From sequence record OK322699.1: a DNA stretch of 64,000 nt; one strand, 5' to 3'. The stretch comes from Escherichia phage Sa157lw. The notes beneath the pieces are model-generated. The model ran no database searches. It was given only the letters and a program-made list of their open reading frames with translations, and was not told the origin of the DNA. Position 1 is the stretch's first letter. Each line of letters starts with the position of its first letter. The position numbers and the translations under genes are program-made. Below, piece after piece: positions 609-50,584 of the stretch.

Positions 609-1271
609 ATGTCGTATTCGCTCAAAGGGTTGTTGAAGCGCCCCGTACATCTGTTTGTAAAACCACCTGCTGTCGAAGGGGAATATCCGGCACGAGGAGA
701 GTTGTATTACGTTAAAGGCTCCAACGGTAGCGGCAAGTCCACTGTCCCTTCCTATCTGGCGGAGAATGATCCTCAGGCGTATGTCGTGACCTACAATGGC
801 AAGATCATGCTCACAGTTTGCCCTTCCTATAACATTATCTGTATTGGTAAATATGACAAGTCTAAGTCTAAAGGTGTTGATTCCCTGAAAGATACCGAGC
901 AGATGTTGTTCGCCTTGTCCATTGCTGATCAGCCGGAATATCTGAAATATGACGTGTTGTTTGAAGGAATCATCCCTTCAACTTTGCTCAGCTCATGGAT
1001 TCCCCGCCTGACGCGCCCACCGCGCGAATTAGTCGTGCTCTTCATGGACACCCCGCTTGAAACCTGTGTTTCCCGTGTGAAATCACGCAACGGCGGCGCA
1101 GACTTCAATGAAAGCCTGGTTGTCGAAAAGTGGGAGAGAGTTCATGACCACCGCCAACGGCATAAAGGCTTGTTCCCTACCGTTCCCGCAGGTATGATGA
1201 AGTCCAATGGCCTGACTATAGAGCAGGCTGTTTTTGCGTTTCTCAATCGTGATTTTGGGAGTATTGATTGA
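609..1271 (+). CDS. P-loop nucleotide/polynucleotide kinase-like protein
   Basis: Walker A GSNGSGKST near N-terminus (resembles the T4 Pnk kinase P-loop GCPGSGKST); ATG 609 preceded by GGAG; track ORF 597 begins at TTG. Confidence 0.55.
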   Translation: MSYSLKGLLKRPVHLFVKPPAVEGEYPARGELYYVKGSNGSGKSTVPSYLAENDPQAYVVTYNGKIMLTVCPSYNIICIGKYDKSKSKGVDSLKDTEQMLFALSIADQPEYLKYDVLFEGIIPSTLLSSWIPRLTRPPRELVVLFMDTPLETCVSRVKSRNGGADFNESLVVEKWERVHDHRQRHKGLFPTVPAGMMKSNGLTIEQAVFAFLNRDFGSID

Positions 1272-2311
1272 TGGAAATTTTTGCTTTAAACAATAATGAT
1301 ATGCTGAAGAAGGCTGTGTTGGCCATCCGTGAACACGGCATTGAGTCAGATCCTGGCAACGCAGAGATTAACACTGACGGCACTCGTTTCATTGATGGTG
1401 TAACAATTACAGTATCAGATCCACGTGACCGTTGGCTTTCCGTTGAAGGCCGCAACTCGTCGGCAATTGCTGCCATCGGTGAGACATTCTGGGTGTTGTC
1501 CGGACGTAATGATATCCGTTTCCTTTCGAAAGTCTTACCCCGCGCCGCCAACTTCTCTGATGACGGTGTAACCTGGCGAGGCGCGTATGGCCCACGTCTG
1601 TACAATAATGGCCAGTTGGATAGTGTCATCAGCCGTCTGCGTAATAATCCCAACACCCGTCAGGCGTATCTCACCATCTATGATCCGGCGCTGGACTCAG
1701 ATGAAGGTTTGGCCACCCATAGTGAAACTGGAGAAGCCAAGACCAAGGACATGATCTGTAATCTTGCTCTATTGTTCAGTATAACAGAAGGGCGATTGAA
1801 TATCACTGTCATTAACCGCAGCCAAGATGTCTTGTGGGGCATGAGTTCAATCAATTTCATTGAATTCTCTATCCTGCAAGAAGTTCTGGCGAAAGTGCTG
1901 AATGTCGAAGTTGGGTATTACAAACTGTTTTCTAACAATCTTCATTATTACAACAATGAAGTTAGTCGGAAACAACTCGGGGGTATCACTAAGAAGACCA
2001 AAACTTCTTCTGGGATGTACAATTCTTTGCTGGAATTCTCTTCAGAAAAAGTGAAGTCCCAAAAAGATATTTGTAATCTATTCCTCGGCGTGTTACAACA
2101 CTGTGACATCGGCAGTGATTTTGGTAAAATCAGAGAACATCTGAAAGGATATCAAGCAGACACGGGATTGATGATGGATATGTCATATTGCCTGTGGTGT
2201 CGCCTCAATGATACCAAAATTGACAAACGCCGTATCGCTGATGACGGTCTTCGTACTGCATTACTGCATTCCCCTGTTGATCAGAAATTTATGTGGGGGT
2301 ATGGCGAATGA
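1271..2311 (+). CDS. thymidylate synthase-family enzyme (ThyA or dUMP hydroxymethylase)
   Basis: TS-fold motifs RQAYLTIYDP, Cys in DMICNLAL, RSQDVLWGMSSINF with Asn at the pyrimidine-specifying position; about 80-aa C-terminal extension. Confidence 0.7.
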   Translation: MEIFALNNNDMLKKAVLAIREHGIESDPGNAEINTDGTRFIDGVTITVSDPRDRWLSVEGRNSSAIAAIGETFWVLSGRNDIRFLSKVLPRAANFSDDGVTWRGAYGPRLYNNGQLDSVISRLRNNPNTRQAYLTIYDPALDSDEGLATHSETGEAKTKDMICNLALLFSITEGRLNITVINRSQDVLWGMSSINFIEFSILQEVLAKVLNVEVGYYKLFSNNLHYYNNEVSRKQLGGITKKTKTSSGMYNSLLEFSSEKVKSQKDICNLFLGVLQHCDIGSDFGKIREHLKGYQADTGLMMDMSYCLWCRLNDTKIDKRRIADDGLRTALLHSPVDQKFMWGYGE

Positions 2312-2877
2312 TGTACCAGAACCTTGAATTCTTCACGGGGCGCAAGCGCTCCGGCAAGGACTTCTGTTTGGAGTCCCTGATCAGGTTTCATCATATTCAG
2401 GGTGATAAGGATATTCGTCGTCTGTCTTTCTCAGATGAACTGCGACGTGTCGCCAATTTCATCTACCCATGGCTACCAGCGGAGGTGGAGGATGCTGTGA
2501 AGGACGTTCCATTCGTACACCCTGATAACCCCAAGGGCTTAACCCCACGGCAGATCTGGCTTCATCTGGGCAGCGATACGGGCTTGCGTTATGTACAACC
2601 AGACCTGTTCCTGTCATTCTTTAAACGATATCAACTTCCTTTGGTGGAGCAGAACCCACACGTTCATTATATCGTGAGTGATTTGCGTACCCCTCAGGAA
2701 TATGAATGGGCGCTGAGCACTAAATGTCCCATCACCCGCATTTCAAAGGCGGATCGCGGTGGTATCATAGAGGATGACATTGAGGCTTTCATTGATAAGA
2801 TGGAAGTTGATTATGAATTTGTCAATCCGTTTGAAGGTTGGCAACCGTTCGTCAAATTTTATAGGGATCGGAAATGA
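2308..2877 (+). CDS. deoxynucleoside monophosphate kinase (T4 gp1-like)
   Basis: N-terminal FTGRKRSGKD resembles T4 gp1 LSGVKRSGKDT; ATG overlaps upstream stop. Confidence 0.6.
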   Translation: MMYQNLEFFTGRKRSGKDFCLESLIRFHHIQGDKDIRRLSFSDELRRVANFIYPWLPAEVEDAVKDVPFVHPDNPKGLTPRQIWLHLGSDTGLRYVQPDLFLSFFKRYQLPLVEQNPHVHYIVSDLRTPQEYEWALSTKCPITRISKADRGGIIEDDIEAFIDKMEVDYEFVNPFEGWQPFVKFYRDRK

Positions 2878-3431
2878 TCACAGCAGAGCATATTAAAAGT
2901 CTGCTCGAACTTCAAAAGGCCACCAACGTGGCCTATTTTGGGGAAGAGTGGAAGAATGTATGGAGTCAGAACGCCGTCGTCAACTCCATATATCGTGAGT
3001 GGGCAGAGTTTCTTGACGAAACGACCGCCGACTGGAAGGTCTATGGTAACGATATCGGCTTCGACCGCACGAAGGCGGTCTATGAACTGGTGGACGTGGT
3101 TCACTTCATGCTGTGTTTCATCCTCGTCGATCGCACCAAAGGAGAGATCGAGGAAGAATTAGAGGAAATGTCTAAGGATAGTTATGCCATGTCTATCGTT
3201 AACGGCATAGTTGCCCACGGCGGGGTGACCTACCGCTTTGGACAGTTCATGGGCGATCCTTGCGTTCGTTCCCTGATGTATTTCCTGAGCGCGTCTTGCT
3301 CTTACGTGGGGCTGGACGCCGAAACTTACATGCTGGCACACAAACGCAAAAATGATCGCAATCGGCTGCGTGCTGCTGGCGGTGCGAACTACGATAAGTC
3401 CGCAGAAACCCCTCTGACCCTGGAGTTCTAA
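2874..3431 (+). CDS. all-alpha dNTP pyrophosphatase (T4 gp56 dCTPase/dUTPase-like)
   Basis: YELVDVVHFML and acidic EEELEE segments resemble T4 gp56 ELVDIFHFVL region. Confidence 0.45.
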   Translation: MITAEHIKSLLELQKATNVAYFGEEWKNVWSQNAVVNSIYREWAEFLDETTADWKVYGNDIGFDRTKAVYELVDVVHFMLCFILVDRTKGEIEEELEEMSKDSYAMSIVNGIVAHGGVTYRFGQFMGDPCVRSLMYFLSASCSYVGLDAETYMLAHKRKNDRNRLRAAGGANYDKSAETPLTLEF

Positions 3432-9443: not shown

Positions 9444-9644
9444 ATGAAGCGCGAAATTAAGGATGTGTATGATCCTGGATCTTGTTGCCCAGGACACGAC
9501 AAATATCCTTCAGAAAAATATAAAAATCGTCGTTCTGTAGCTAAACGTTCCGAGGGGATAAAGAAAGAACATCGTCACGCTCGCCGTGTTAAGCGCCTTG
9601 CGTTGAAAATCGATATATTCTATTCACCTCAGGAGGATTTTTAA
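9444..9644 (+). CDS. small basic hypothetical protein
   Basis: 66-aa ORF. Confidence 0.3.
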   Translation: MKREIKDVYDPGSCCPGHDKYPSEKYKNRRSVAKRSEGIKKEHRHARRVKRLALKIDIFYSPQEDF

Positions 9645-9853
9645 TGGAATGTTCATGTGGAGGGCAAGGCACAAGTGCATACTTGCCATTTAACACCGTC
9701 AAGGAAGCCGAAGACGCTGGATATGCCGTGGACAAGGCTCCCTGTGTAATTGCCATTAAGGATTGTCCGTGCTGTAAGAGGCACTCTCAGAACGTTTGGT
9801 ATGCCCCAGAAGCAAAGGGCAAAATTAATTTATTGAATATGATGAGGAAGTAA
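9644..9853 (+). CDS. small Cys-rich hypothetical protein
   Basis: CSCGG...CPCCKRH. Confidence 0.3.
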   Translation: MECSCGGQGTSAYLPFNTVKEAEDAGYAVDKAPCVIAIKDCPCCKRHSQNVWYAPEAKGKINLLNMMRK

Positions 9854-9854
9854 T

Positions 9855-10193: not shown

Positions 10194-10251
10194 AATAATT
10201 CTATTGAAGTCTCTGGGGTTATAATAACAAGACGAATAACCCTGGAGACAC

Positions 10252-12347: not shown

Positions 12348-12375
12348 AATTGAATTAAGGGGGCGTAACCCCCCT

Positions 12376-12400
12376 TTCAATAAATCTATGGCAGTATAAT
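12376..12400 (+). promoter_or_regulatory. sigma70-like promoter candidate
   Basis: TTCAAT then 13 nt then TATAAT after a G/C hairpin, upstream of ATG 12429. Confidence 0.3.
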
Positions 12401-12428
12401 TCCAACAAATCATCACAACGGTATTGTT

Positions 12429-12692: not shown

Positions 12693-12846
12693 AAATCCGC
12701 CGTCATATGTAAAAATCGGGATCGCTTTCCGGAACGCAATGCTTTTCATTAAAGAGAAAGGCTTGATGTCGGAGTTCAATCAGTTCTGTTCTGAACGTCA
12801 CAGATTACAGAAACAGAAAAGCAGGGAGAAACGCCATGATAACTGA
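12682..12846 (+). CDS. small hypothetical protein
   Basis: GTG start after GGAGAG; alternative frame to previous ORF. Confidence 0.25.
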   Translation: MVGKNPPSYVKIGIAFRNAMLFIKEKGLMSEFNQFCSERHRLQKQKSREKRHDN

Positions 12847-13498
12847 GTGGGAGAAAATGCAATATGAACGTGCATTTAACGTTTATTGCATATATATGGC
12901 GATCAAGTTGCATTTCACCACCAAAGATTTTGATTATGGTCTGTATGGGCCGATGAACAATTACAAGTTTGAAACATTCTATTCTAAACAGGGCGTGGCA
13001 AAGCAATTTGCTAAACTTGCTCGTCGGTTTGAATCTTCCCAGGGTGAAGTGGTGGAAAATTATATCATCGCCAACTTTGTTAAATCACCCAAAACATGGG
13101 TGACAACATTACTCACCCGTCAGGCTCAAGAAAATTATAATGAATATCGCCGCCTGTACGATAACTTTTCATATAATTTTCTTGACCATTTTGAACGTTA
13201 TATGATTCCGGAAATAAAAGAAAGAGGTGTGAACTTTATCCAGTACATCAAAGGAAATGGGAATGGTCACCCACCGTTACTGACAGACATTATCATCAAA
13301 CGTTATCCGATTTGGTTTTTGGTTGGATTGAATAAAGTGGTGGGATTTATTCATTTATATGATACAATACTCAAGGAAGATATTTATTGGAATTCTGAGT
13401 CGTTCTTATTGAAAAAGACTAATTCTGTGGTTCCGGATGAAAATACAGAATACACGAAAGGAAAACTCCGTGAGCTAATCCTTGCCCACGGAATTTGA
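12836..13498 (+). CDS. helicase loader (T4 gp59-like)
   Basis: Size, position and KLHFTTKDFDYGLYG-type N-terminus resemble gp59. Confidence 0.5.
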   Translation: MITEWEKMQYERAFNVYCIYMAIKLHFTTKDFDYGLYGPMNNYKFETFYSKQGVAKQFAKLARRFESSQGEVVENYIIANFVKSPKTWVTTLLTRQAQENYNEYRRLYDNFSYNFLDHFERYMIPEIKERGVNFIQYIKGNGNGHPPLLTDIIIKRYPIWFLVGLNKVVGFIHLYDTILKEDIYWNSESFLLKKTNSVVPDENTEYTKGKLRELILAHGI

Positions 13499-15439: not shown

Positions 15440-15449
15440 TTGTCACCTC

Positions 15450-16838
15450 TCAGACCTTCTGGGCTTGTCCTTTCTCTATTGGCGTCGGAGTTGGTGTAGA
15501 AGCCACAGTTTGACCAGTCTGAGGTGGTAAGACCTTCTGGATCATACTATCTTTGGCAATCTCGGCGACGCATTGATAATCATTTGTCAGGCGTGAAATC
15601 TTGTGGCGTATCTTTGTGACGATATAATGGCCTGTTGATAACTTACTTAACTCGGCAATGTTTTCATTAGATTTCGGGCGGTTCGACAAATCTTCAATAT
15701 AATAAACCTGCCCAACATTCAGGCGGTTATCCCCCACGACCAGCAAACGCATAACCGTTGACGCAAGGCTGAATTCTATAACGCGGCGAGCATAATCTAT
15801 TTGTTCAGCACCATCGGGTTGCGCTTCAATGTACCTAACATTCTCACGATCAAACTGATCAGAAAATAATGGGAATGGATCAAGGTGAGCAGTGCTGTCA
15901 AACCATTCTGAATAAATGCGTTGGGTCGCTGTCGTGGATTTTGTACTAAAGTCATACACGCGCTCGTTCACTGCCAAGATATCCCGATAATTCGCCATGT
16001 ACTGATCACGCGCCAGTTTCTTTTCAGCCTTGATGATCGTCCGCATAAAACGTTCGGAGTTGAAGTTGTTGTCTTGCATCAACGGGGCATCTTGAGGATC
16101 ACGGAAGAATTTCTTTTCCGCGCTTGCCTCTTGTTTCTCTTCAGCAGTCATGGACTGATTGCCCTGGTTGAACAATGTCGTCATGCTCTTGAAGTGATAG
16201 CCTGTGAAGTCTTCATAGAAAACAAATGGCATAAACAATTCGTCGTATGCGCGGCTGGCCATATAATCGATGGAACGAAGTACAGGCCAAAGAGGAGTTG
16301 CGAATCGTTCTTGCACACCATACGACGGATCTATGTCTTCAAATTTGGTTCGAGAATTTAACTGCTCAAAAATCTTGGCCGCCATTTCTGAATAAGAACC
16401 GCTCAGACCGATAGACTTACGCAGCATGCTGTCACGGTACGCATCTGTTGTCACCAAGTGCAGCCAAAATGCTTTTTTAGATGATGAATTGGATTCATCC
16501 GCAACTCTGCCCACCCGACTCACGCGCAATGAGAGAGTAGTGTAATCAGAAGCCGCTGGTGATTTGAATGACACCACTACTTCTTCACCGCCAAGTATCG
16601 GCATTGTGTCCAATATATCCCAACCTTCTTTTATCAAGATATTGGCTGTCAGTGAAGGAGAAGCATTACCTTCCAAACCAAGATCTTGGTAGACGTTGAA
16701 TTCTTGAAATAAAGAAGACAGGTCATATGGTCTTGGCGTACCACCTTCTGGAGTATGTGGTAGGATCGCCATATACTTCAAATCAAATGTGGTGGACGGT
16801 GTTAAAATACCGTCTTGAGATTCTTTATTTTCGATCAT
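15450..16838 (-). CDS. baseplate/tail-associated structural protein
   Basis: 462-aa ORF overlapping neighbours in a structural operon. Confidence 0.4.
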   Translation of the reverse strand: MIENKESQDGILTPSTTFDLKYMAILPHTPEGGTPRPYDLSSLFQEFNVYQDLGLEGNASPSLTANILIKEGWDILDTMPILGGEEVVVSFKSPAASDYTTLSLRVSRVGRVADESNSSSKKAFWLHLVTTDAYRDSMLRKSIGLSGSYSEMAAKIFEQLNSRTKFEDIDPSYGVQERFATPLWPVLRSIDYMASRAYDELFMPFVFYEDFTGYHFKSMTTLFNQGNQSMTAEEKQEASAEKKFFRDPQDAPLMQDNNFNSERFMRTIIKAEKKLARDQYMANYRDILAVNERVYDFSTKSTTATQRIYSEWFDSTAHLDPFPLFSDQFDRENVRYIEAQPDGAEQIDYARRVIEFSLASTVMRLLVVGDNRLNVGQVYYIEDLSNRPKSNENIAELSKLSTGHYIVTKIRHKISRLTNDYQCVAEIAKDSMIQKVLPPQTGQTVASTPTPTPIEKGQAQKV

Positions 16839-17392
16839 TTGGTCAGCTCCTGTTCCAGCTGATTAACAAAGGAAGAAACATAATCTGGATCGAGCACTTG
16901 GATGTTACGTTTGGCTTCGTTTTTGTTTATTGCATCATCGTGATATGTAATGCCCGTCAGCCCGTAATTCGCGATGATTGTCGCGTCGTCCATAGCGCCA
17001 AGGCCATATGCCAAACGGATAGCGCGGGGATCTGTTTCATTCCCAAATTCGTCAACGTAGTATTTTACGTCCCACATCCCATCGAGTCCATAACGAGCAG
17101 TTAGCTCTTCAATGATTCTGCGTTCTGGTTTTGGCCAGTCTTCTGTGATATCCATGATACCATTGATAAGACATGGTATCCAGAACAACTCGAAGGAACC
17201 ATAGACCCGTTCCGCAAAAGACCTTGGGGTTTCCCCATCGAAAACAGTATAAGGCAGGAGAAGCCCTTCTATGTCCCGAATTTTCTTAACAACCATAACC
17301 CGTCGTGTCAAGTTTTGCAACAGGACTTGGTCATTTTCTTTGACACCAATTAGTTGATGCCATACGAGTGGAAATTTCTCAAAATATTTCAT
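16835..17392 (-). CDS. hypothetical structural-operon protein
   Basis: 185-aa ORF, overlapping stop/start. Confidence 0.4.
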   Translation of the reverse strand: MKYFEKFPLVWHQLIGVKENDQVLLQNLTRRVMVVKKIRDIEGLLLPYTVFDGETPRSFAERVYGSFELFWIPCLINGIMDITEDWPKPERRIIEELTARYGLDGMWDVKYYVDEFGNETDPRAIRLAYGLGAMDDATIIANYGLTGITYHDDAINKNEAKRNIQVLDPDYVSSFVNQLEQELTK

Positions 17393-19665: not shown

Positions 19666-20187
19666 TTAATTCCTTACTTTGTCAGGATTAGATAAGATTT
19701 GTTCGTATCCGACTTCTCCTTGATAGTCGAAAACATGCTGAAGAATCGCCATATCGTCTACCATCCGATAAACTTCAATTCCAGCGTTCATCAATTTTTT
19801 GATTCCATCCATAATACGATATGGCTCACGATAATATACTTTATCGATTTTACCGCTATCTATTATCTTTTGAGTGCAATCAGGGCAAGGACTATGTGTC
19901 ACAAACATAACCAACCCTGTGAAATCATCTGCATTTTCGGGGATACGCATTAGAGCATTTTCCTCCGCATGAACGACACACGGGTTTGTAACAATTTGCC
20001 CGTGTTGTTCCATCTCACAAACATTCGGCATGCCAGGAGGCGTTCCGTTCCATCCTATAGCCACAGGCTGATCAGTTTCAGGGTTTACAATAACACAACC
20101 GACTTGCAGACGCCGAGCATAACTGGTTACACCATATGCTGCAGCTGATCGCATATGAGCAAACATCATACGTGGTTTGATAGCCAT
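19666..20187 (-). CDS. dCMP deaminase
   Basis: Zinc-binding HAEENAL and SPCPDC motifs. Confidence 0.85.
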   Translation of the reverse strand: MAIKPRMMFAHMRSAAAYGVTSYARRLQVGCVIVNPETDQPVAIGWNGTPPGMPNVCEMEQHGQIVTNPCVVHAEENALMRIPENADDFTGLVMFVTHSPCPDCTQKIIDSGKIDKVYYREPYRIMDGIKKLMNAGIEVYRMVDDMAILQHVFDYQGEVGYEQILSNPDKVRN

Positions 20188-20591: not shown

Positions 20592-20905
20592 TTCACCAAC
20601 ACCTTTTCAAGTAAAAAGATCATGTCATCCTGGTCGGCGCGGCCAAAGATCTGACCGAGGGATACCATGGAATGAACCTCTTTGACAATCAGGTCTTTGC
20701 CTGTTACACCGCTGTTGTCCAATTCGAGAATTGTAGACATGCGCTCAACCATATGAGGTGGATGATTGATATAACGTTGAAGATACTTTTCACGCAACGC
20801 AATTTTTTCGATAAGATCTGACATTTCTGCATTCTCTTCTGAATACAGACGTTCTTTAGATTTCAGTTCTTCGAGGCGTTCGTGCATTTCTTTTAATGAA
20901 ATCAT
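20588..20905 (-). CDS. hypothetical coiled-coil protein
   Basis: Start moved to internal ATG because the longer N-terminus runs through a terminator hairpin. Confidence 0.4.
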   Translation of the reverse strand: MISLKEMHERLEELKSKERLYSEENAEMSDLIEKIALREKYLQRYINHPPHMVERMSTILELDNSGVTGKDLIVKEVHSMVSLGQIFGRADQDDMIFLLEKVLVK

Positions 20906-20915
20906 GTTTATCTCT

Positions 20916-20947
20916 CCCAATAAATTAAGGGGAAGTATACCTTCCCC
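20916..20947 (-). terminator. hairpin terminator candidate
   Basis: GGGGAAG-TATAC-CTTCCCC stem-loop with A/T-rich flank. Confidence 0.4.
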
Positions 20948-20968
20948 TTTCTTCAATAACCTAAAATA

Positions 20969-21319
20969 TTATTCAGTGCACGCTTTACCGAGGTCTGTAA
21001 GTCTATAGAATGTTACTTCAGACTTCGGCCAATGTTTATATTCTTCAGAGTTGTCATGAACCATTGTAAACGCAGGTTCGATCAGACCTTTAGATAATAA
21101 TGATTGCCCTGAACGTGTATCCCACGGATCACCTTTTACAGAACGAAACCCACCAGCAATCGGAGGGGTATGGAATGTCCATACTGTCTTGCCCTTTTCA
21201 TTCGTCCAAGACTTCGGATTGAAATACCAATGACAAAGGCGTCTGGCTTCACCCTTTTCAAAATTTAACATTCCTAAAAGGACGCAGAGTTGATGTCCTG
21301 TGATGCGTGGCTTTTTCAT
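20969..21319 (-). CDS. hypothetical protein
   Basis: 116-aa ORF. Confidence 0.4.
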   Translation of the reverse strand: MKKPRITGHQLCVLLGMLNFEKGEARRLCHWYFNPKSWTNEKGKTVWTFHTPPIAGGFRSVKGDPWDTRSGQSLLSKGLIEPAFTMVHDNSEEYKHWPKSEVTFYRLTDLGKACTE

Positions 21320-21648
21320 AAGATCCCCAAGTCAGTAAGGTAACGATAAAACAAGATTATAGACAGAAATCCAATTAACATCCAAGACGACAGGATAGGC
21401 TTGCAATTTAGCGTAGTCTTTCCATTGGGTATGTTGGGACTTCCAGTAATAACAACCGAATCCGTTTTAGCTCTCAGCGTCATGACAGAACCCATGAGAA
21501 TGATTGGGCGCACATAATGTCCTTCATTATTGCGCTTTACGATACATGGTGAAGAAAATCGCAGGAACGGATCACCGCTTTTATAACCGAATAACTCGAC
21601 CTTTTGTATTTCTTCGGGTACTTTCTGACCAGGAAAGAATATTTTCAT
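21316..21648 (-). CDS. hypothetical protein
   Basis: 110-aa ORF. Confidence 0.35.
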
Positions 21649-22223
21649 AATACAATTCCTAAATTTGTGTATAACAACTCAGCCAGGGTTACAGGACGCT
21701 TGAATTGTTCCCAACTGCAGTTCAGGTATTCGCGCTCTTCGCGGATATTTTCGTGAAGATGACCATGGATATTATACGCCCAACGGTCTAATTGATAAGG
21801 AACATGTGTTGTCAACACACGGCCAACAGGCGTGTCACGTTCGTACATAGCGCCGAAGGAGCTAATCCAGCCGTCCATATACAAAGACAACAGCATCTTA
21901 AAGCTGTCATGGTTGCCTTGTGCCACCCTGATGATAAAGTTCGGACGCCAGTCATCGGGAACGGGGCGTCGCTTAAACTCATCAATGTTTCGCTTGGCAC
22001 CCTCCCGCATCAGGCGAATGAACCCTTCAGCCCCGATGAAGCATATATCACCAGCCAGTTCAAGAACGTCCCGAGACTTCAACCCCTGAAAGATACTGTC
22101 AATGACCGCAGCGTCATGGGCTTCCTGTGTATCAAATCCACGCGGTTTAAAGACCTTCTTATGCCCAAGATGAGTGTCACCAAGGTGCTTTACAATTCCC
22201 GCCATTATGGTTTCCTCAGCCAT
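21645..22223 (-). CDS. calcineurin-like metallophosphoesterase
   Basis: GDTHLG, GNHD and HGHLH metal-binding motifs. Confidence 0.6.
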
Positions 22224-42400: not shown

Positions 42401-42783
42401 AACACACCATCCACGAGTTGTTCCTTCGTCATACCAAGAAGTTGATTTTTATGACCTGATTCAGCTCCATTTTTCAACAACAGATCCCAACGTTCTTCAT
42501 GATACTGTGGAGTCATTGCATCGTCAAAAGAAACATGGTGGCGATGCATAATTGTTGCAACGGTATGAAGAACGATTGCTGTCGCTCTTTTTAAAGCACG
42601 TGTATCAGTGATATGGTCTTCATATTCAATACCCATCAAATCGAGTTCTTTCCGAATATATGCAATAGACAAATCACCTTCAGAATGCAATTTAACAATA
42701 GTCGCTTTCTTAGGATGTAACACGCCGTCTGTTTCTTTCATGAACAGATCGTACAAATATTGTTTGTATTCGGGGCGCATCAT
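42397..42783 (-). CDS. hypothetical protein
   Basis: 128-aa ORF. Confidence 0.4.
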   Translation of the reverse strand: MMRPEYKQYLYDLFMKETDGVLHPKKATIVKLHSEGDLSIAYIRKELDLMGIEYEDHITDTRALKRATAIVLHTVATIMHRHHVSFDDAMTPQYHEERWDLLLKNGAESGHKNQLLGMTKEQLVDGVL

Positions 42784-43034
42784 CTCGTAATCCCTCCGGC
42801 ACAGATAATATTCAGTTCACCGCGACGGAAACCGCCTTGCCCCTCGCCATGTAGTAGACCAAACGCACTCTTGCCGGAATTTTTGTTGCCGTTCAGTATA
42901 TTCCAAAGAGCATCAGCATCGCCTAACTCAGTCATCTGGTATTTTGTTGGATTTTTATGATCTTCTTCCAGAATCACCGATACCATAGATTCAATATCGA
43001 GGGAGTCCATATCTTCAATTCGTTGCATTGCCAT
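42780..43034 (-). CDS. hypothetical protein
   Basis: 84-aa ORF with AGGAAA RBS. Confidence 0.4.
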   Translation of the reverse strand: MAMQRIEDMDSLDIESMVSVILEEDHKNPTKYQMTELGDADALWNILNGNKNSGKSAFGLLHGEGQGGFRRGELNIICAGGITR

Positions 43035-43046
43035 GATGTATTTCCT

Positions 43047-43087
43047 TGTAAAAGAAAGGGGAACGGGCTAATAATAACCCATTCCCC
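43047..43087 (-). terminator. rho-independent terminator
   Basis: GGGGAACGGG...CCCATTCCCC hairpin followed by U-run on minus strand. Confidence 0.5.
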
Positions 43088-43115
43088 TTTATTGAAGAAC
43101 GCAATCGCAGTCAGA

Positions 43116-43283
43116 TTACTTTTTCTTCAGCTCTTCCAGCTTGGCTTCAATTTGGTCCAGAATCTCTTTACCTTTCTGGACGATGGCTTCACCGTCTTGC
43201 GCGTGTTTACGAAAAACCAGAGCGCCAGCAATGAAACCAACAACCACGCCTGGGAGCGCATACACCAACAGATCTTGTAACAT
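43116..43283 (-). CDS. small membrane protein (55 aa, not in ORF track)
   Basis: MLQDLLVYALPGVVVGFIAGALVF..., GAGGA RBS 8 nt upstream. Confidence 0.4.
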   Translation of the reverse strand: MLQDLLVYALPGVVVGFIAGALVFRKHAQDGEAIVQKGKEILDQIEAKLEELKKK

Positions 43284-43321
43284 GATTTATATCCTCACTT
43301 TTATAAGCAAGGATATTTATA

Positions 43322-44557
43322 TCATCGTTTCAACAAAGACATGAGGTTTACACTGGTCGACTTCGGATTGTCCTCTATCTTCCGGACGGGCATTTTCAGA
43401 TTAGTGTAAACCTCAGATGGTTCCCAACGCGTACCCTGCTGCAGGTGCCATATATGTAGAGGAACACCTGTCTCAAAGAACACAGGCATCTTCCACTTCT
43501 GGACGCCAGGAACGTGCCCTGCAGGAGCTTTTTCGCATAACAGGGTATCTGGTAGCCAGAGGGAACGGGCTTCCCATAATGCCTTACAGGAGTACTCAGG
43601 CCAGATGCGTTCCATGTAGTCGATCTCATCCCAAGTACGCTCGGCATCCCACCCGATGTAACGAGTGTTTTTCAGACGGAAGAATTTCTTAAGCCAACAA
43701 GCACCGGAAGTCTCAAAGTTCAAACGATTGATGAACGTGATGTGACCAAACTCGGCGACACAATCTTTGAATGCCTGTTCAAGATCAGCCTCAAGGATGT
43801 CGCATTCTTCATCGGTGATAGGACAGCCGTTGATCTTTTTCTTTCCGTGCTTGGTCACCCAGTCGTCACGGTTTGACAAGAATGCCGCGCCGTTGCGGTT
43901 GGACTCACTACCATCACGGTCACGCAACATGAACCCAGGGACGTCGATCTGATACATGTTGCCGAATACCATGTTCAGGGCTTCCAGGAAGTTCCAGGCG
44001 CTCAGGCGACCGAAGTATTTCCACCCCATAGCCGTGTCCCATAGCTTAACGAATTGATCACTTTGCAGTTTAGTCTCCAACAACGGACGGAAAGCATCCA
44101 TCTGAGTACGACCAGCCAGCCAATCAATGTAGGACTGAACACACGGGATCATCTTCGATTTGCGATAGCGGCAATCAGTATCGAATCGCATACGCTCGAA
44201 GTTCAGGTTATACCAATCACAGAATCGCTTGAACTCTTGTGGTGACTGAGGCGGTACAGGAAACTCACTATAAATCGTCCATGGGCCAATCCCATTATAA
44301 CAACAGCCCCAAAGGAACGCCATCCAGATCTTGCGCTCGATCTTCTCAAGCTGCGTAATGCCTTCAGTGACTTCAATCGCATAATCCATCAGACGAACTT
44401 GTTGGTTGTGTTCTTCCGTATACGACAGCGCCTCCACCCATGCTTTGAGCAGATACATCCGATTCTCTGGCTTACGATAATCGATTGACAAATCAATTGG
44501 GTACTTCCATTCAGCCGGAGGCGTATAACCTGTCGGCATTTTAGATAGATGCGTCAT
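43322..44557 (-). CDS. large Trp-rich protein of unknown function (candidate DNA-modification enzyme)
   Basis: 411 aa, no motif recognised; sits beside an orphan P-loop kinase. Confidence 0.45.
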   Translation of the reverse strand: MTHLSKMPTGYTPPAEWKYPIDLSIDYRKPENRMYLLKAWVEALSYTEEHNQQVRLMDYAIEVTEGITQLEKIERKIWMAFLWGCCYNGIGPWTIYSEFPVPPQSPQEFKRFCDWYNLNFERMRFDTDCRYRKSKMIPCVQSYIDWLAGRTQMDAFRPLLETKLQSDQFVKLWDTAMGWKYFGRLSAWNFLEALNMVFGNMYQIDVPGFMLRDRDGSESNRNGAAFLSNRDDWVTKHGKKKINGCPITDEECDILEADLEQAFKDCVAEFGHITFINRLNFETSGACWLKKFFRLKNTRYIGWDAERTWDEIDYMERIWPEYSCKALWEARSLWLPDTLLCEKAPAGHVPGVQKWKMPVFFETGVPLHIWHLQQGTRWEPSEVYTNLKMPVRKIEDNPKSTSVNLMSLLKR

Positions 44558-44915
44558 CCTTCACCTCGGCTTCGAGTTGGATATCTTCAGGGTTTAAAAC
44601 GGGCTGGCCCAAAGACCAAATTGGAAGGAACCGACGGTCATTGGATACTACCCAGATTTGCTTGGCGGTTTTCGTTTTTTCAGAAATATAATGCTGGGCA
44701 TTAACCTGAGTCCGTGCCAGCCCAATTTGCCGCCATGCACCGAAATCTTTAGAAGATGGATTGGTGTTCAGCTGGAATTGGGGAATGATTTTATTCTGTT
44801 CCGGATAATATCGGACAGCGTTAATCATATTGGCATCGCCACGATAGTCAACAGCAATAGCAATGGCATTGCGTGGAATAAGAATTTTCATTTTAATTCC
44901 TTTTGAAACTTTCAA
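44541..44915 (-). CDS. hypothetical protein
   Basis: 124-aa ORF. Confidence 0.4.
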   Translation of the reverse strand: MKVSKGIKMKILIPRNAIAIAVDYRGDANMINAVRYYPEQNKIIPQFQLNTNPSSKDFGAWRQIGLARTQVNAQHYISEKTKTAKQIWVVSNDRRFLPIWSLGQPVLNPEDIQLEAEVKDDASI

Positions 44916-45096
44916 TTATGTTGTAAACGAACGGCGTTAATAAAGCAACACCGCCCGAATAATATAACGCGTAAACATTCAATATTTCGGTTGAGTCTAA
45001 TTCAACGATGCCCAAATATTTCATAACACCGACAAGCATAGCTGAAAAGCACATCACCAGACCGACGAACACAAAATATTTAGACATCTTTTTCAT
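44893..45096 (-). CDS. small membrane protein
   Basis: 67 aa, hydrophobic. Confidence 0.3.
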   Translation of the reverse strand: MKKMSKYFVFVGLVMCFSAMLVGVMKYLGIVELDSTEILNVYALYYSGGVALLTPFVYNIIESFKRN

Positions 45097-45099
45097 TAT

Positions 45100-46014
45100 C
45101 TACACCTTACGCATTAGCCCCAGAAGGGACACGGATGAGGTCTTTGGTTCTTCCTTGGCGACGGCCTTGTTTTTAGTTTTGGATGCCTTCTGCGGCTTCT
45201 CAGGCACTCTGTGAGCCAAAGGATCCTGACCGCCGACTTCACGCGTCATCGGATTGGTTTCGCAATAGCCGTAGAAGTCTTTCGACATCAGATTGTTAGC
45301 GCGGCAAACTGTGCCAAGCTGATGATAGATAGCATTACCCACCACCCACAACGGGGCGTCGAACGGCAACATAGCCAATTCGCTATCATTCCCAGTCTTG
45401 AATTCTTGGGTGTTCGTAACCGTTTGGTGGTACAAAACGTCTTGCCCACTGTAATCATCCACGGCAACATTCCAGCCCAGCGCCAGCATTTCAGATTTCG
45501 ACTTCTCGAACTCCTTGGAGTAAGATTCGTTGCGCGACCAGCCGGAATCCCCCGCTTCTTTACCAGAGCGTCCACGGATGCGGGCATCGTACTGATAGCG
45601 ATCAGGATACGCAAAGTACAGCAGCGCCAAAGAATCAATCGGATAGTTCTTGAACATCCATTCAGGACGCCACTTGTCCGACAGCATCAGGGGTTCGCCC
45701 TCACACACCAGGGTATATCCCTGAGCCAGCCAACCCTTGATGAGGTCGCGAGCAATATCCCCAGAGCCTGTGGCAGCATGAATGGCGTCCATAGAGGTCC
45801 AAGACGCCAGGCCGGATTTATTGGACACTGTGTATTGGCCGACGAAGATTAACTTCAGCTCTTCAAATTTCAGGCCGAAGGGGCGCGTCTTATCCCCAAC
45901 AGTGTACGACAATTCAGTCGGCTTCAGCTTAGTGCGGAGCCACTCGATGAACTGTACGACACGAGTGCCTTTACCCGTGCCGCTGGTTCCTTTGATTACA
46001 ATGATCTTTGCCAT
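45100..46014 (-). CDS. P-loop kinase of unknown substrate
   Basis: Walker A GTSGTGKGT at residues 9-17. Confidence 0.55.
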   Translation of the reverse strand: MAKIIVIKGTSGTGKGTRVVQFIEWLRTKLKPTELSYTVGDKTRPFGLKFEELKLIFVGQYTVSNKSGLASWTSMDAIHAATGSGDIARDLIKGWLAQGYTLVCEGEPLMLSDKWRPEWMFKNYPIDSLALLYFAYPDRYQYDARIRGRSGKEAGDSGWSRNESYSKEFEKSKSEMLALGWNVAVDDYSGQDVLYHQTVTNTQEFKTGNDSELAMLPFDAPLWVVGNAIYHQLGTVCRANNLMSKDFYGYCETNPMTREVGGQDPLAHRVPEKPQKASKTKNKAVAKEEPKTSSVSLLGLMRKV

Positions 46015-46319
46015 TATGCAGCATCCTCAATGCGCCAACTCACTCCACCCAACCAAGGTGCCCAAAACACGGCAACTTGCGGATGACCATTCTCAACAAA
46101 CTTCACTTTATACTGGTCATCAAAGTTATAGAAAATTTCGTCGTCATCAGGTGCCATACCGTTTTCAATCAGAACTCGTTTTAATTCCAACGCTGCGCCA
46201 ACGGAAGTTGGTGGATTCTGATTACGGATGAAGTTGTTTACATGGATAATGATACCATCCATATCACTGTCACCGGAACGCTTGTCAGGGCTTTCTACAA
46301 CTTTATTTTGTTCTTGCAC
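46014..46319 (-). CDS. hypothetical protein
   Basis: 101-aa ORF. Confidence 0.4.
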   Translation of the reverse strand: MQEQNKVVESPDKRSGDSDMDGIIIHVNNFIRNQNPPTSVGAALELKRVLIENGMAPDDDEIFYNFDDQYKVKFVENGHPQVAVFWAPWLGGVSWRIEDAA

Positions 46320-46328
46320 GATGTGCTC

Positions 46329-47111
46329 CTATCGGACATATTGATAATGAGAAACCAGGCGATTCACCACTTCATCGAGGTTACGATTTAAGAAGTCAAA
46401 GTGGTTTTGGCCTTCTACATGCTTAATATAAAGCATATCCTCGCAATTCGAAAGATCCAGTTTTTCATAATTGCCCTGAGGGACGAAGATGACGAAGATG
46501 TTATTCAGGGCACACGGCTCAACATACTTCGGATTGTCGTCGATCAGGACATCGCCAGCAAGCAGATGCTTTTCATCCGTGCTCACGAACCCATTAATCA
46601 ACGATTCAAAGTGATGGTATATGAACTGACGCTTGCTGCGTTCGTGTTCCGGTTCGCATTTTGTAACTGCCACCATTTCCACTTGCTCAAACTTCTGAAG
46701 GAGAGCGGCCTTTAAATTCGTAAGGAATTCAACAGCCCCTGGCAGTGGTGACATTCTGGAATACAGATCAGGCATACGCCACCAATCCATCGGATCACGT
46801 CCTGTTGGCGAATCCATCCACTGACCAGCAACGAATACACGGCGCGTTAACCAGGCCGGATGCGCGCGTTCACGCATGAGGATCGCCAGATCACCAGCGT
46901 GTGACATATAACACTCTTTGGTGATTGGTTGAAATTCAGATGGGTAGTCGTGACATCCCATATTTTCCGCAGCGGCTTTAGAATTAGAAATATTGAACCA
47001 TTCAACCCACGGCGATAGGGAATCAACCAGAGTCAAATCCACATCCACCAGAACGCGATATAACCCGCCAATTTTAGAACATGCGTCATACAGACCAACG
47101 TGATTATTCAT
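46329..47111 (-). CDS. HAD-superfamily phosphatase / 5'(3')-deoxyribonucleotidase-like
   Basis: VLVDVDLTLVD (DxD motif I) and C-terminal GDVLIDDNP; start at internal ATG. Confidence 0.45.
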   Translation of the reverse strand: MNNHVGLYDACSKIGGLYRVLVDVDLTLVDSLSPWVEWFNISNSKAAAENMGCHDYPSEFQPITKECYMSHAGDLAILMRERAHPAWLTRRVFVAGQWMDSPTGRDPMDWWRMPDLYSRMSPLPGAVEFLTNLKAALLQKFEQVEMVAVTKCEPEHERSKRQFIYHHFESLINGFVSTDEKHLLAGDVLIDDNPKYVEPCALNNIFVIFVPQGNYEKLDLSNCEDMLYIKHVEGQNHFDFLNRNLDEVVNRLVSHYQYVR

Positions 47112-47448
47112 CAGATTTCTCCACATTGTCATAACCAGTTGCGGTGCATTGCTCTTCGGTGCAATCGGCATACAGAACCACAGAAGATTCCTTCACGTAA
47201 GTGGTGCAGTGATAGGTTTCATCTTCCTGGATGGAATCATCATAATTGCAAACAGTTTGCAACGGACCAGGAGTCGTGTTGTCCAAAGCTGCATGTGCCT
47301 TGATGGTGTCTTCCATCTTATTCACCGCTTGCTGATTGGTGAACGTCGGCGCATCGAGGTCAACAGTAGACGCAACGTCCAGAAGGGTAGAGCATGCAGT
47401 GGTAGAGAAAGCCAGAGCACACACCAGAAGAATCTTATTGAGTTTCAT
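47104..47448 (-). CDS. putative lipoprotein
   Basis: Signal peptide MKLNKILLVCALAFSTTACS with Cys. Confidence 0.45.
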   Translation of the reverse strand: MKLNKILLVCALAFSTTACSTLLDVASTVDLDAPTFTNQQAVNKMEDTIKAHAALDNTTPGPLQTVCNYDDSIQEDETYHCTTYVKESSVVLYADCTEEQCTATGYDNVEKSDE

Positions 47449-47508
47449 AACAATACCTGTTGTCAAAGGGATAACAGGGGGAATTATATCCCCCTTTGTT
47501 TTATTGAA

Positions 47509-50505
47509 TCAACCTTTCTTGCCCATCATGGACAACAGATTAACTCGACGTTTGTGAGACCAACCAACCACGTCTAGAATAGATTGAATCGGCTCTATGA
47601 AGGTCTTTTCAAACGTGGTGTGATAATCTACCCACTTATCCAGCCCCAACTCCGGAGGGAGGAAGTCAGGGAAGGCTATGCGGTCGTTCCCCACAGGGTT
47701 CCCAGGTTTCAGGTTAATGATTTTAACCTTATCGCCAGATTCTATCGGCGGGAGACCGAGGTCTTCATGCTTGTCTATCAGCTTGTTGTACATAATACAA
47801 GCCTTGGCAGCAAAGTGTGTGCCACTGATATAATTTCCGTTGCCGTCTAACCACTTCTCAATATCACTAACGCCAGAGGCTTGAGCAATATCATCCACGG
47901 TTAATTCCATATATTCCTTCTTATAACCCGCGATCAATTCCTGAACTTCAGCCTCCGTCCCCAGAAGAACTTTCTCATAGCATTTAACCAGACGCTCACG
48001 ACACCATTCCGGCGTTGTAGATTTACGCGCTTCCAGACCTTTGAATTTGATCTTTGGCTTCTCATACTTGATGCCTTCGCTATCGTATACCGCCATGCAA
48101 TACATCTTCTTGGCTCGCCATACAGCAGACGATGCGATGACCTCACGTTCCCAGACCATGCGCTGCTCAAACCCGTTCATGGTATTACATAACAACTGCG
48201 CCCATTCGCTGGTTTTTGGCTGGTAATTCTCTTTGATCCATTGGTCAATGTTATCAACGAGTTTGTGATGGTCCTTTTCTTCAGGCCACAATTGCTTGAC
48301 CAGGCGTTCAATGCAAATGTAGTTGGAGTCAGTATCACCCGCGATAACAAAATCCTGACCAGTAGTGCCGCAAAGTTTGTTCAGATAATCATCGGTGTGG
48401 CGTTTGTTCCATTTGTTGATCAGCTGGCCGGAAGTGGTGATTGCTTCAGCGATGTTGATGTTGAAGTATTCTTTAAACCAGACGTTGGAGATTGCGCCAT
48501 AACCTGCGTTCATCAAGATCTTCAGACCTTGTTGTAACGTGTCTTGAGCAACCCCCAGATCTTCCCATTTATGCATGACTTCAGTCAGGTGATCAAGATC
48601 GATATGCTTGTGTTCTTCATACCATTCAGGATCGTAGAAACGAGACTTCATGGCAGACTCAAGGTGGAAATCACCTTTAGACATTTCCTTACACCAACCA
48701 GCCCATTGCTCATACTTCAGGCCAGTTGCTTTCTCTCCTTTACGGTCAGCGTATATGCCTCGCATAATTTCGGAAAGGAAGGACATCTTCTCATTACTGA
48801 AGAACTGAACGTTCGGGGTAAACGAAACGTTATATCGGCGTAGTGTTTCAAAATGGAATTCGCCCAGCGCGACCAATTCATCAACAACTTGTATGCGTTC
48901 ATCAATAGCACGCTGCAACTTGTCGTGAAGATTTTTGAGATGACGACGTTTATTCATCGGCGTTGTCATATCATTCATCGCTTTGGTCAATTCCTCACAC
49001 ATGGCCTCAATAATATCACGGCGTGTGTGCTTATCAGAAACGATAGTCTCTGGACCAAGGTTGTATTGCTGTATGATGTGGGGATACAGGGAGTTTAAGT
49101 CCTCAGAGAAGACCCAGAAATATATCCCTGGTGCAACCTCCATGACATATGCGCCTTCAAAATCTGTTGGCCCATCATAGACGCGCTGGATTTTCGGGAC
49201 AATCCCCTTCTCATAAAGACGATAATAGCACATCGCCAGCCACGGTGCTACAGTGCCGAGACCGTCTTCATAGTTGGATTTAGTGCGATAAGCCAATACA
49301 AACATCAGCTGTATCAAACGCAGTTTTTGTTCTAAGCGCCACACCAGCTTGACGTCTTTGATACCATATCGCGTATGCTTGCAATAATCATTGAAATAAA
49401 GGTCATACAATGATTTGCTTTCACTATAATCCAACTTCTTCTCACCGAGTTCACAATAAGCGATCCAGTCCAGTGAGTATTTTTCGCGGGTGGTGTAAGT
49501 GTGTTTCTTGTACACTTGCATGTAGTCCATCATTGGACAACCCACAAACTGATAAGACGTGACGTCGCCTTTACGGTCTTTGATGAAACGTTTCTTCAGT
49601 TTACCCCAAGGACTGAGACGCTGGGCTTCGGATTCACCAAGAACCTGCGTAATTCGTTCAACCAAATAGGGGCTATCGAACGTTTCAATGTTCCACCCCG
49701 TCCAACCGTCAAATTGACGCTGCGACCAGTAGTTAAGGAATGAACGCAGCAGATCCTGCTCGGTGACGAACTCCATATACTCAACCTGAAGCCCACCGAT
49801 TTCAGGATCGTTCTCATCATACCTGAACTTCGCGCGATCCTTGGAACACGGCATGCCCCAGACATAGAATTTATTGGTATTCATATCTTGGAGCTGTATC
49901 AGCGTAATAGGGAACGCCGCATTCATGTTCTGTGTGATTTTACCGTTACTGTCAATTATAGGGAATTGGTCAGTCACGTTGTTGGAAATAAAGGAACCAG
50001 GGAAATGCTCCCGAACGAAGTCATGGTTGGCCAGTACTTGCTTATGGAAACGACGAACCCGCGCCTCGCTGCCTTTAAACGTGTGAGATTCGATCGTTGC
50101 GTGTGGGAATGGACCTTTAGTCATTTCTCCGTCACGCCAACCAGCCGAGAACACTTCGATATCCACGTTGGCGATGTGGATATTTGAATAATCAGGTGTG
50201 ATCATCCCAGGAAAACTATGGGCGATGAATTGATATGCATAATCCGTTTGTCCATACACCGCAGCGCCTTCGACCTCCTTGTACTCCTCAAGATAGTTGT
50301 CAGCGTCGCGCATTGATGCAAACTTTTTAGACACCAACGGTTCGTTGAGGAGGCCAATCTTTTCAACTTTGGAATAATCAGCTGTGGGTAAATACAAGGT
50401 GGGTTCGAATTTCTTACGCAACATGCGGCGATTGCCGTTGTCGTCTGCGATACGAATCAGAAGGTCGTTACCCTGTCGGGCAACGTTCGTATAGAAAACA
50501 GTCAT
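47509..50505 (-). CDS. family B DNA polymerase (T4 gp43-like)
   Basis: Pol motif IAGDTDSNYI, exonuclease domain; start at MTVFYTN with GGAG RBS. Confidence 0.9.
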   Translation of the reverse strand: MTVFYTNVARQGNDLLIRIADDNGNRRMLRKKFEPTLYLPTADYSKVEKIGLLNEPLVSKKFASMRDADNYLEEYKEVEGAAVYGQTDYAYQFIAHSFPGMITPDYSNIHIANVDIEVFSAGWRDGEMTKGPFPHATIESHTFKGSEARVRRFHKQVLANHDFVREHFPGSFISNNVTDQFPIIDSNGKITQNMNAAFPITLIQLQDMNTNKFYVWGMPCSKDRAKFRYDENDPEIGGLQVEYMEFVTEQDLLRSFLNYWSQRQFDGWTGWNIETFDSPYLVERITQVLGESEAQRLSPWGKLKKRFIKDRKGDVTSYQFVGCPMMDYMQVYKKHTYTTREKYSLDWIAYCELGEKKLDYSESKSLYDLYFNDYCKHTRYGIKDVKLVWRLEQKLRLIQLMFVLAYRTKSNYEDGLGTVAPWLAMCYYRLYEKGIVPKIQRVYDGPTDFEGAYVMEVAPGIYFWVFSEDLNSLYPHIIQQYNLGPETIVSDKHTRRDIIEAMCEELTKAMNDMTTPMNKRRHLKNLHDKLQRAIDERIQVVDELVALGEFHFETLRRYNVSFTPNVQFFSNEKMSFLSEIMRGIYADRKGEKATGLKYEQWAGWCKEMSKGDFHLESAMKSRFYDPEWYEEHKHIDLDHLTEVMHKWEDLGVAQDTLQQGLKILMNAGYGAISNVWFKEYFNINIAEAITTSGQLINKWNKRHTDDYLNKLCGTTGQDFVIAGDTDSNYICIERLVKQLWPEEKDHHKLVDNIDQWIKENYQPKTSEWAQLLCNTMNGFEQRMVWEREVIASSAVWRAKKMYCMAVYDSEGIKYEKPKIKFKGLEARKSTTPEWCRERLVKCYEKVLLGTEAEVQELIAGYKKEYMELTVDDIAQASGVSDIEKWLDGNGNYISGTHFAAKACIMYNKLIDKHEDLGLPPIESGDKVKIINLKPGNPVGNDRIAFPDFLPPELGLDKWVDYHTTFEKTFIEPIQSILDVVGWSHKRRVNLLSMMGKKG

Positions 50506-50584
50506 TGTTTGTCTCCGGTTAACCGTGCCGTCAGCACGTCCCCGTAATTTAACCGAGGAACGTTCAATGACCAAGGAGTTTAAA

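Follow-up and report, generated by a model that had tools for sequence, protein, structure and literature searches.

The closest described relative of the locus reported here is the thymidine-hypermodification system of Salmonella phage ViI, whose enzymes yield 5-(2-aminoethoxy)methyl-deoxyuridine (5-(2-aminoethoxy)methyl-dU, or 5-NeOmdU; Lee 2018 PNAS; Lee 2021 NAR). In the ViI literature 5-hydroxymethyl-dU (hmdU) enters the DNA at replication, and 5-NeOmdU replaces about 40% of the T and blocks many restriction endonucleases. Lysates of five ViI proteins (gp67, gp160, gp226, gp243 and gp247) rebuild 5-NeOmdU on hmdU DNA (PMC5889632). Each of gp243 and gp67 alone yields 5-phosphomethyl-dU (5-PmdU) on DNA, purified gp247 transfers L-serine via its side-chain oxygen to give O-serinyl-thymidine, and in lysate mixes without gp226 a nucleoside builds up whose mass exceeds that of 5-NeOmdU by 44 u (PMC8989533); this accumulation, together with the pyridoxal phosphate (PLP) carried by purified gp226 (PMC8989533), is the reason for assigning gp226 as a decarboxylase. 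Here we describe the counterpart of this system in Escherichia phage Sa157lw (record OK322699.1), within a stretch of 64,000 nucleotides (nt) referred to as the window, and in particular three minus-strand open reading frames (ORFs) at 43322-47111, which encode a protein of 411 amino acids (aa), a 304-aa P-loop protein and a 260-aa protein of the HAD superfamily (Table 1).

The window is part of a Kuttervirus genome (ViI-like Ackermannviridae). The segment 43322-47171 is 99.6% identical in nucleotide sequence to Salmonella phage Vi01 over its full length of 3850 nt by megablast, and all 275 phage records that it matches are ViI-like Ackermannviridae. The genes, their order and their strand are those of ViI, with the products corresponding to gp243 (Vi01_196/orf00243), gp247 (Vi01_199/orf00247) and gp239 (Vi01_194/orf00239) being 98.7-100% identical, and the accessory gp67, the ThyA-like enzyme and the dCMP deaminase of ViI are also represented in the window. 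The three ORFs lie where an earlier note on this DNA had drawn them and are real genes, not chance ORFs, because each scores above a curated-family threshold and has dozens of homologues. We conclude with high confidence that the locus forms the post-replicative core of the ViI pathway, converting thymidine positions to 5-NeOmdU; the system is already known, down to its enzymology and mutagenesis, and the finding rediscovers a published pathway.

The kinase and the transferase

The 304-aa protein aligns end to end with the Pfam family HMUD2 ('5-hmdU DNA kinase 2'), residues 1-303 corresponding to profile positions 1-298 of 298, with an E value of 2.4e-168 and 559.3 bits against a cut-off of 25. 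It is identical to ViI gp243 (YP_004327565) at 300 of 304 residues (98.7%). The N-terminus, MAKIIVIKGTSGTGKGTRV, contains the P-loop GTSGTGKGT, a G-x4-G-K-G-T variant of Walker A, at exactly residues 9-17, where the earlier note had read a Walker A motif, and the pattern KG[TSP]S[GA]xGKG[TS]R is kept in nearly all of the full-length members among 87 kinase homologues. The note's suggestion that this is a 5-hmdU DNA kinase, to be examined by a profile search, is borne out by the full-length HMUD2 match and by the identity to a biochemically characterised enzyme, although its description as an orphan has to be dropped, the protein being the published ViI gp243. The gene for the 411-aa protein lies 0.5 kb downstream of the kinase gene, a ThyA-like gene as hmdU source is present elsewhere in the window, and the same pairing of a kinase with a transferase is seen in Vibrio phage K493 and in two further loci, L012 and L013, both from metagenomic myoviruses. 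The 304-aa protein is predicted from these similarities to phosphorylate the 5-hydroxymethyl group of hmdU in DNA, with ATP as donor.

Public labels suggest a different role, that of an ordinary nucleotide kinase (guanylate or thymidylate) with free nucleotides as its substrates: phrog_4409 carries the name 'guanylate kinase', as does Vi01_196 in RefSeq, and one UniRef homologue is named 'thymidylate kinase'. We regard this as highly improbable. Pfam matches the protein over its full length to HMUD2 and assigns it no nucleotide-kinase family; NCBIfam and Protein Data Bank (PDB) sequence searches provide no link to guanylate kinase; ViI gp243 phosphorylates hmdU in DNA in vitro; and the labels look like automated names carried over between records.

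The 411-aa protein belongs to the Pfam family ADDT ('amino acid:DNA transferase'; E 3.2e-58, 197.6 bits, cut-off 26.2), with residues 49-292 aligned to profile positions 2-228 of 232, and it is identical to ViI gp247 (YP_004327568) at 410 of 411 residues (99.8%), the sole change being E395D. It is rich in Trp (20 residues, 4.9%), as had been noticed, and homology to the aGPT-Pplase family that had been proposed without being visible by eye is unambiguous in the profile search; the protein earlier described as unknown is a published, phosphate-displacing transferase. E282, T283, C287 and W288 are invariant in 24 ADDT homologues of 39-75% identity, as are D126, D128 and C129.

To the same Pfam family belong two glycine:DNA transferases, gp46 of Pseudomonas phage PaMx11 (PUGT, PDB 8z2n) and gp51 of phage M6, to which the Sa157lw protein is only about 16-22% identical and than which it is about 120 residues longer. 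ViI gp247 is too distant from M6 gp51 and gp55 for pairwise BLASTP or a four-sequence MAFFT alignment to be informative, and phmmer searches of PDB sequences with the ADDT and kinase proteins returned no matches. The link to PUGT required a predicted structure and a profile alignment. The AlphaFold2 model (predicted local distance difference test, pLDDT, 88.7) is all-helical with a DNA-glycosylase-like fold as in PUGT, which is the top and only credible match in a PDB fold search (Foldseek probability 1.00, template-modelling (TM) score 0.61 on the target, albeit with an E value of 0.04); AGOG glycosylases are found lower in the list. In the hhalign profile alignment C287, E282 and D213 correspond to Cys247, Glu243 and Asp175 of PUGT, and the Glu-Thr pair aligns as well. 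Cys247 is the PUGT nucleophile and Asp175 touches the target nucleoside (PMC11472151), and ViI gp247 loses activity when the conserved Cys or the adjacent Glu is mutated (PMC8989533). The residues mutated in ViI gp247 are probably C287 and E282, as assigned from conservation and the PUGT alignment. The 411-aa protein is predicted to exchange the phosphate of 5-PmdU in DNA for the side-chain oxygen of serine; the nucleophile would be a serine hydroxyl, forming an O-C bond, in contrast to the glycine amine and N-C bond of the PaMx11 and M6 enzymes. NCBIfam has no model for the transferase, the kinase or the HAD protein, and we saw no evidence contradicting the kinase and transferase assignments.

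The published steps were established for proteins 98.7-99.8% identical to the kinase and transferase described here, and the course of the reaction in Sa157lw would be as follows. The kinase would move the gamma-phosphate of ATP onto the 5-hydroxymethyl group of hmdU in DNA, yielding 5-PmdU. The catalytic Cys of ADDT (C287, with E282) would then attack C6 of the base, with expulsion of the phosphate and formation of an exocyclic methylene, to which the hydroxyl of free L-serine would be added to give O-serinyl-thymidine. Finally, the PLP enzyme encoded elsewhere in the window would strip CO2 from O-serinyl-thymidine, leaving 5-NeOmdU.

Some HMUD2 kinases are longer, at about 495-532 aa, and most of these long forms have an N-terminal extension starting ...YxYRITHxPTxRFYVG that resembles a GIY-YIG homing endonuclease. 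One homologue in a Dickeya phage is recorded as 'putative homing endonuclease', and in phage K493 a stand-alone homing-endonuclease gene occupies the corresponding spot.

A C-terminal tail in common with the DNA polymerase

Both the kinase and the transferase end in a short peptide resembling the extreme C-terminus of the family-B replicative polymerase encoded at the head of the same gene run, which ends ...RRVNLLSMMGKKG (C-terminus ...KRRVNLLSMMGKKG; 47512-47547). We ranked all stop-to-stop ORFs of at least 60 aa by scoring their last 12 residues against the last 12 of the polymerase. The top three among 374 in the window are a 70-aa Cys-rich ORF, the transferase and the kinase; the top four among 872 in Vi01 are Vi01_049c, gp247, gp243 and gp160; and in K493, whose polymerase is 49% identical to that of the window, the top four among 703 are ADDT, an HMUDK_hel protein, K493_0077 and the kinase. 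The Cys-rich protein is homologous to K493_0077, which ends ...KTKRLW and is encoded just upstream of the K493 DNA ligase.

The tail co-varies between the polymerase and the modification enzymes in at least five lineages, with VNLLxLM plus basic residues in Kuttervirus, [KR][KR]LW in K493, xLW in L013, and acidic/aromatic T4-like motifs in L012 and in L011, a T4-like metagenomic myovirus. In K493 the polymerase ends ...KARKLW, the kinase ...KTKKLW, ADDT ...KTRKLW and the gp160-type HMUDK_hel protein ...KSTKRLW; in L013 an LW ending is found on the polymerase, ADDT, HMUDK_hel and two HMUD2 kinases but on the products of none of the 14 other genes. The tails in L012 are ...SLSGFFGN, ...NLNAFFS and ...KSVFDI, those in L011 are of the acidic/hydrophobic T4 type (...ELSLFDF, ...LEFFDIFH and ...SLEDFFS), and those in L008, a further metagenomic myovirus, are ...ARPLFD, ...ASVFDLI and ...AKPLF. 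Tails of kinase and ADDT homologues from equally long contigs also match pairwise. In the ADDT model residues 387-408 are disordered (pLDDT below 50) and lead into a short helix at 405-410, and among the kinase homologues the length of the linker varies (285-aa versus 301-305-aa forms) while the tail is retained. In siphovirus-type ADDTs, those of the PaMx11/M6 type, no polymerase-type tail was found. We considered a repeated DNA element as the origin of the tails and rejected it, as the codons differ at nearly every position.

The C-termini of T4 gp43 and of the late-transcription proteins gp33 and gp55 are interchangeable clamp-binding motifs, and the T4 and RB69 polymerases bind the clamp through their extreme C-terminus (PMC2988020); T4 alpha-glucosyltransferase also binds the gp45 clamp (PMC13216743). 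The peptides described here resemble those of T4 and RB69 in being short, in following a flexible linker as the very last residues of the protein, and in being common to the polymerase and DNA-tracking proteins including a DNA-modifying enzyme; they differ in that the putative carriers are the HMUD2 kinase, ADDT and HMUDK_hel. Because of this precedent, and because the tails are shared with the polymerase and co-vary with it, we lean slightly towards the reading that in large clamp-encoding myoviruses the HMUD2 kinase, ADDT and the gp160-type HMUDK_hel dock on the gp45 clamp and modify the DNA immediately behind the fork. The kinase, the transferase and ViI gp160 would be recruited to new DNA by a peptide of the polymerase's clamp-binding type, whereas the untailed gp67 kinase and gp226 decarboxylase would act distributively, and fork-coupled modification of this kind would be a phage analogue of DNMT1-PCNA. 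The Cys-rich 70-aa protein may be a small zinc-binding clamp client.

Several observations weigh against clamp docking. The Kuttervirus and Vibrio tails combine basic with hydrophobic residues, where those of T4 are acidic and hydrophobic; ViI gp33 (...ELKSKKLI) and gp55 have no clear copy of the Kuttervirus motif; and gp67 and gp226 lack the tail although they also act on DNA. The tails might instead bind another hub, such as a single-stranded DNA-binding protein, a helicase loader or a phage compartment or targeting factor, or serve as DNA-binding or degradation tags. We consider this the less probable explanation, albeit one of some weight, since in every lineage examined the replicative polymerase has the tail at its very end, the clamp-binding site in T4 and RB69, the gp33 homologue of K493 carries a tail (...KTRKLF) akin to those of the polymerase, kinase and ADDT there, and the T4-like L011 has tails of the T4 type (SLFDF, LEFFDIFH, SLEDFFS); binding of alpha-glucosyltransferase to gp45 provides a precedent. 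No statement of a shared, clamp-binding tail turned up in the papers on thymidine hypermodification or through full-text searches of the open literature, and the tail on hypermodification enzymes is the only point in this work that looks unreported.

Two further tails in ViI are encoded outside the window. Vi01_144c (97862-98284) ends ...KPKTKRLL and, like gp33 (44283-44525 of the Vi01 genome), is nearer to the K[TS][KR][KR]L[WF] of the Vibrio phage than to VNLL, a hint that there are two tail flavours in one phage. We also note that L011 (logan ERR12510853_90671, 8616-16927) has the order Tet_JBP, ADDT, P-loop kinase, two small genes, NT5C, one gene and a split family-B polymerase, a dioxygenase-fed thymidine-hypermodification module in a clamp-encoding phage with T4-type tails.

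The HAD protein

The third gene, whose longest ORF reaches 47171 (280 aa), encodes a protein identical to Vi01_194 (gp239) at all 260 residues. The match to Pfam NT5C (33 bits, cut-off 24.8) is partial, covering residues 130-220 of the 280-aa ORF, and phmmer relates the protein to the human mitochondrial 5'(3')-deoxyribonucleotidase, mdN, with an E value of 0.011. The DxD and GDVLIDD motifs of the earlier note are present, as D23-V-D25 (within VDVDLTLVD) and at residues 186-192 in the numbering of the 260-aa form. Across motifs I-IV, D23, D25, T27, K181, D191 and D192 do not vary in 22 homologues, and position 150 holds either S or T throughout, a conservation from which an active phosphatase is predicted. 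The AlphaFold2 model (pLDDT 87.5) combines a Rossmann-like core and a helical cap in the manner of mdN and its cytosolic counterpart cdN, and the best Foldseek matches are 3bwv, 1q92, 1z4i and 2jao (E 1e-7 to 1e-6; TM 0.58-0.82 on the target). Human mdN and cdN and the Staphylococcus epidermidis protein 3bwv have the HAD core, the helical cap and the DxDxT, S/T, K and DD motifs in common with it (Foldseek E about 1e-7), but are only 16-20% identical; the phage protein differs in its invariant KCEPEHE motif and in a more extensive cap insertion, part of which forms a beta-hairpin at about residues 89-102.

Capped members of the HAD superfamily act on small molecules. With moderate confidence we regard the protein as a capped deoxynucleoside monophosphate (dNMP) nucleotidase of the pre-replicative, pool-shaping leg of the pathway, probably not acting on DNA. 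It would dephosphorylate free dNMPs, most plausibly thymidine or deoxyuridine monophosphate (dTMP or dUMP), and so bias the nucleotide pools. There is precedent for such a role in the phage dTMPases described for hmdU phages (PMC8989533 introduction).

The earlier note had placed the phosphatase in the post-replicative cluster, and a role there, such as dephosphorylation of 5-PmdU in DNA as reversal or proof-reading of the kinase step that sets the modification level of about 40%, would agree with its genomic position. The order polymerase, HAD gene, (small gene), kinase and ADDT is kept in Kuttervirus, K493 and the metagenomic L013 with polymerases no more than 49% identical; in K493, L013 and L011 the HAD homologue either separates the polymerase from the kinase/ADDT pair or adjoins them, and in L012 it is a few kb off. 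Its position beside ADDT and the kinase in L011, a Tet_JBP-type locus, also counts against the pool-shaping assignment, and leaves the dTMPase role uncertain, because L011 apparently makes hmdU by a Tet/JBP dioxygenase and depletion of dTMP would be counter-productive there. We nevertheless judge action on DNA unlikely, and the placement in the post-replicative cluster is not upheld. All of the nearest folds belong to capped deoxyribonucleotidases with small-molecule substrates; the protein has none of the polymerase-like C-terminal tail seen on the DNA-acting enzymes; and the minimal compact ParB-Tet_JBP-kinase-ADDT modules of siphovirus-like contigs have no gene for it. In ViI, gp239 is not among the proteins that rebuild the modification in vitro (PMC5889632, PMC8989533) and is unmentioned in both papers, the words nucleotidase, dTMP and dTTP being absent from the former. 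Distant relatives with an NT5C domain (about 30% identity, partial) occur in other large phages, in which ADDT and kinase genes were not looked for.

Gene organization, annotation and significance

The uninterrupted minus-strand gene run has the order polymerase, DUF7292 lipoprotein, HAD, DUF7254, kinase, two small genes and the 411-aa gene. A gap of 60 nt follows the polymerase gene; all other neighbours overlap or are spaced by 1-9 nt (Table 1). In K493 the kinase and ADDT genes are directly adjacent, the gp244 and gp245 positions being empty. A scan for promoters and terminators over 42700-51000 gave counts near those of shuffled controls (16 versus 13.5 and 11 versus 7.2) and is uninformative on operon structure. 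A perfect 7-bp G+C-rich stem-loop (AGGGGGA-ATTATA-TCCCCCT, 47476-47495) lies within the 60-nt gap and overlaps a minus-strand sigma-70-like promoter match.

Table 1. Genes and tails of the hypermodification locus and of related functions in the Sa157lw window.
Feature	Coordinates	Strand	Basis
Serine:DNA transferase, ViI gp247 orthologue, ADDT (aGPT-Pplase clade 2), 411 aa (predicted)	43322..44557	-	Pfam PF18724; identity to gp247
Transferase tail, putative clamp-docking peptide	43325..43360	-	...KSTSVNLMSLLKR, TSVNLMSLLKR; rank 2/374
Small protein, ViI gp245 orthologue, 116 aa	44541..44891	-	116/116 identical to Vi01_198; phrog_4163; no Pfam match
Small hydrophobic protein, ViI gp244 orthologue, 67 aa	44893..45096	-	67/67 identical to Vi01_197; phrog_4514
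5-hmdU DNA kinase, ViI gp243 orthologue, HMUD2, 304 aa (predicted)	45100..46014	-	Pfam PF18747; identity to gp243
Kinase tail after Lys/Pro/Ala-rich linker, putative clamp-docking peptide	45103..45138	-	...KTSSVSLLGLMRKV, SSVSLLGLMRKV; rank 3/374
DUF7254 protein, ViI gp240 orthologue, 101 aa	46014..46319	-	Pfam PF23912 E 3.3e-47; 100/101 identical to Vi01_195
HAD-superfamily NT5C-like 5'(3')-deoxyribonucleotidase, ViI gp239 orthologue, 260 aa (predicted)	46329..47111	-	Pfam PF06941; motifs; predicted fold
DUF7292 putative lipoprotein, ViI gp237 orthologue	47104..47448	-	Pfam PF23964 E 1.9e-53; 114/114 identical to Vi01_193
Polymerase, family-B replicative, heads gene run	47509..50505	-	Pfam DNA_pol_B_exo1 and DNA_pol_B; phrog_262; annotated Vi01_190
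PLP-dependent decarboxylase, ViI gp226 orthologue, start codon uncertain	54184..55611	-	92% aa identity over 394 residues
gp67-type HMUD1 kinase	609..1271	+	Pfam PF18748 E 1.7e-116; 99.5% identical to Vi01_061c; ViI gp67 active on hmdU DNA (PMC8989533)
Thymidylate-synthase homologue, inferred dUMP hydroxymethylase supplying 5-hmdUMP	1271..2311	+	Pfam Thymidylat_synt 54 bits; 99.4% identical to Vi01_060c
dNMP kinase, Vi01 'dnk' orthologue, pre-replicative leg	2308..2877	+	Vi01_059c annotation; collinear, 98.9% nt identity; weak Pfam match
dUTPase_2/NTP pyrophosphohydrolase	2874..3431	+	Pfam PF08761 E 8e-8; Vi01_058c annotation
70-aa Cys-rich protein (CxCGG...CPCC), Vi01_049c orthologue	9644..9853	+	ends ...GKINLLNMMRK (9815-9850); rank 1/374
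dCMP deaminase, supplies dUMP	19666..20187	-	Pfam dCMP_cyt_deam_1 E 1.9e-17; Vi01_030 annotation

The window also encodes most of the remaining pathway, while gp160 and the gp45 clamp gene (Vi01_135c) are outside it. The ThyA-like protein scores far under the NCBIfam thymidylate synthase equivalog cut-offs, and its role as dUMP hydroxymethylase follows PMC8989533. The gp226 orthologue matches Pfam PALP at 30 bits, under the cut-off of 35, and the N-terminal 80 or so residues of its ORF differ from ViI gp226. The region of this gene (53176-55326) is 86.7% identical in DNA to Vi01 with surroundings at about 99%.

Sa157lw is a mosaic relative of ViI, collinear with Vi01 across the start point of the record and mostly 96-99.5% identical, but for a few segments that have diverged or been replaced. 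These are 3021-3311, 3312-5340, 5341-5873, 10194-11682, 11683-12370, 20602-22205 and 52801-53175, several of them at 84-91% DNA identity and some without any megablast match.

Public labels for these enzymes are misleading: the HMUD1 kinases (ViI gp67, M6 gp54 and PaMx11 gp49) are recorded as 'terminase small subunit', the HMUD2 kinase as 'guanylate kinase' and ADDT as 'hypothetical'. The practical value of the assignments is in annotation, as many GenBank records mislabel the kinases and the transferase. The tail, if confirmed as a clamp-docking peptide, would account for the ability of post-replicative hypermodification to keep up with replication and for the retention by ViI-like phages of two kinases and two aGPT-Pplase-type proteins, tailed and untailed, and a match to the polymerase C-terminus would provide a simple signature for finding further clamp clients in phage genomes.

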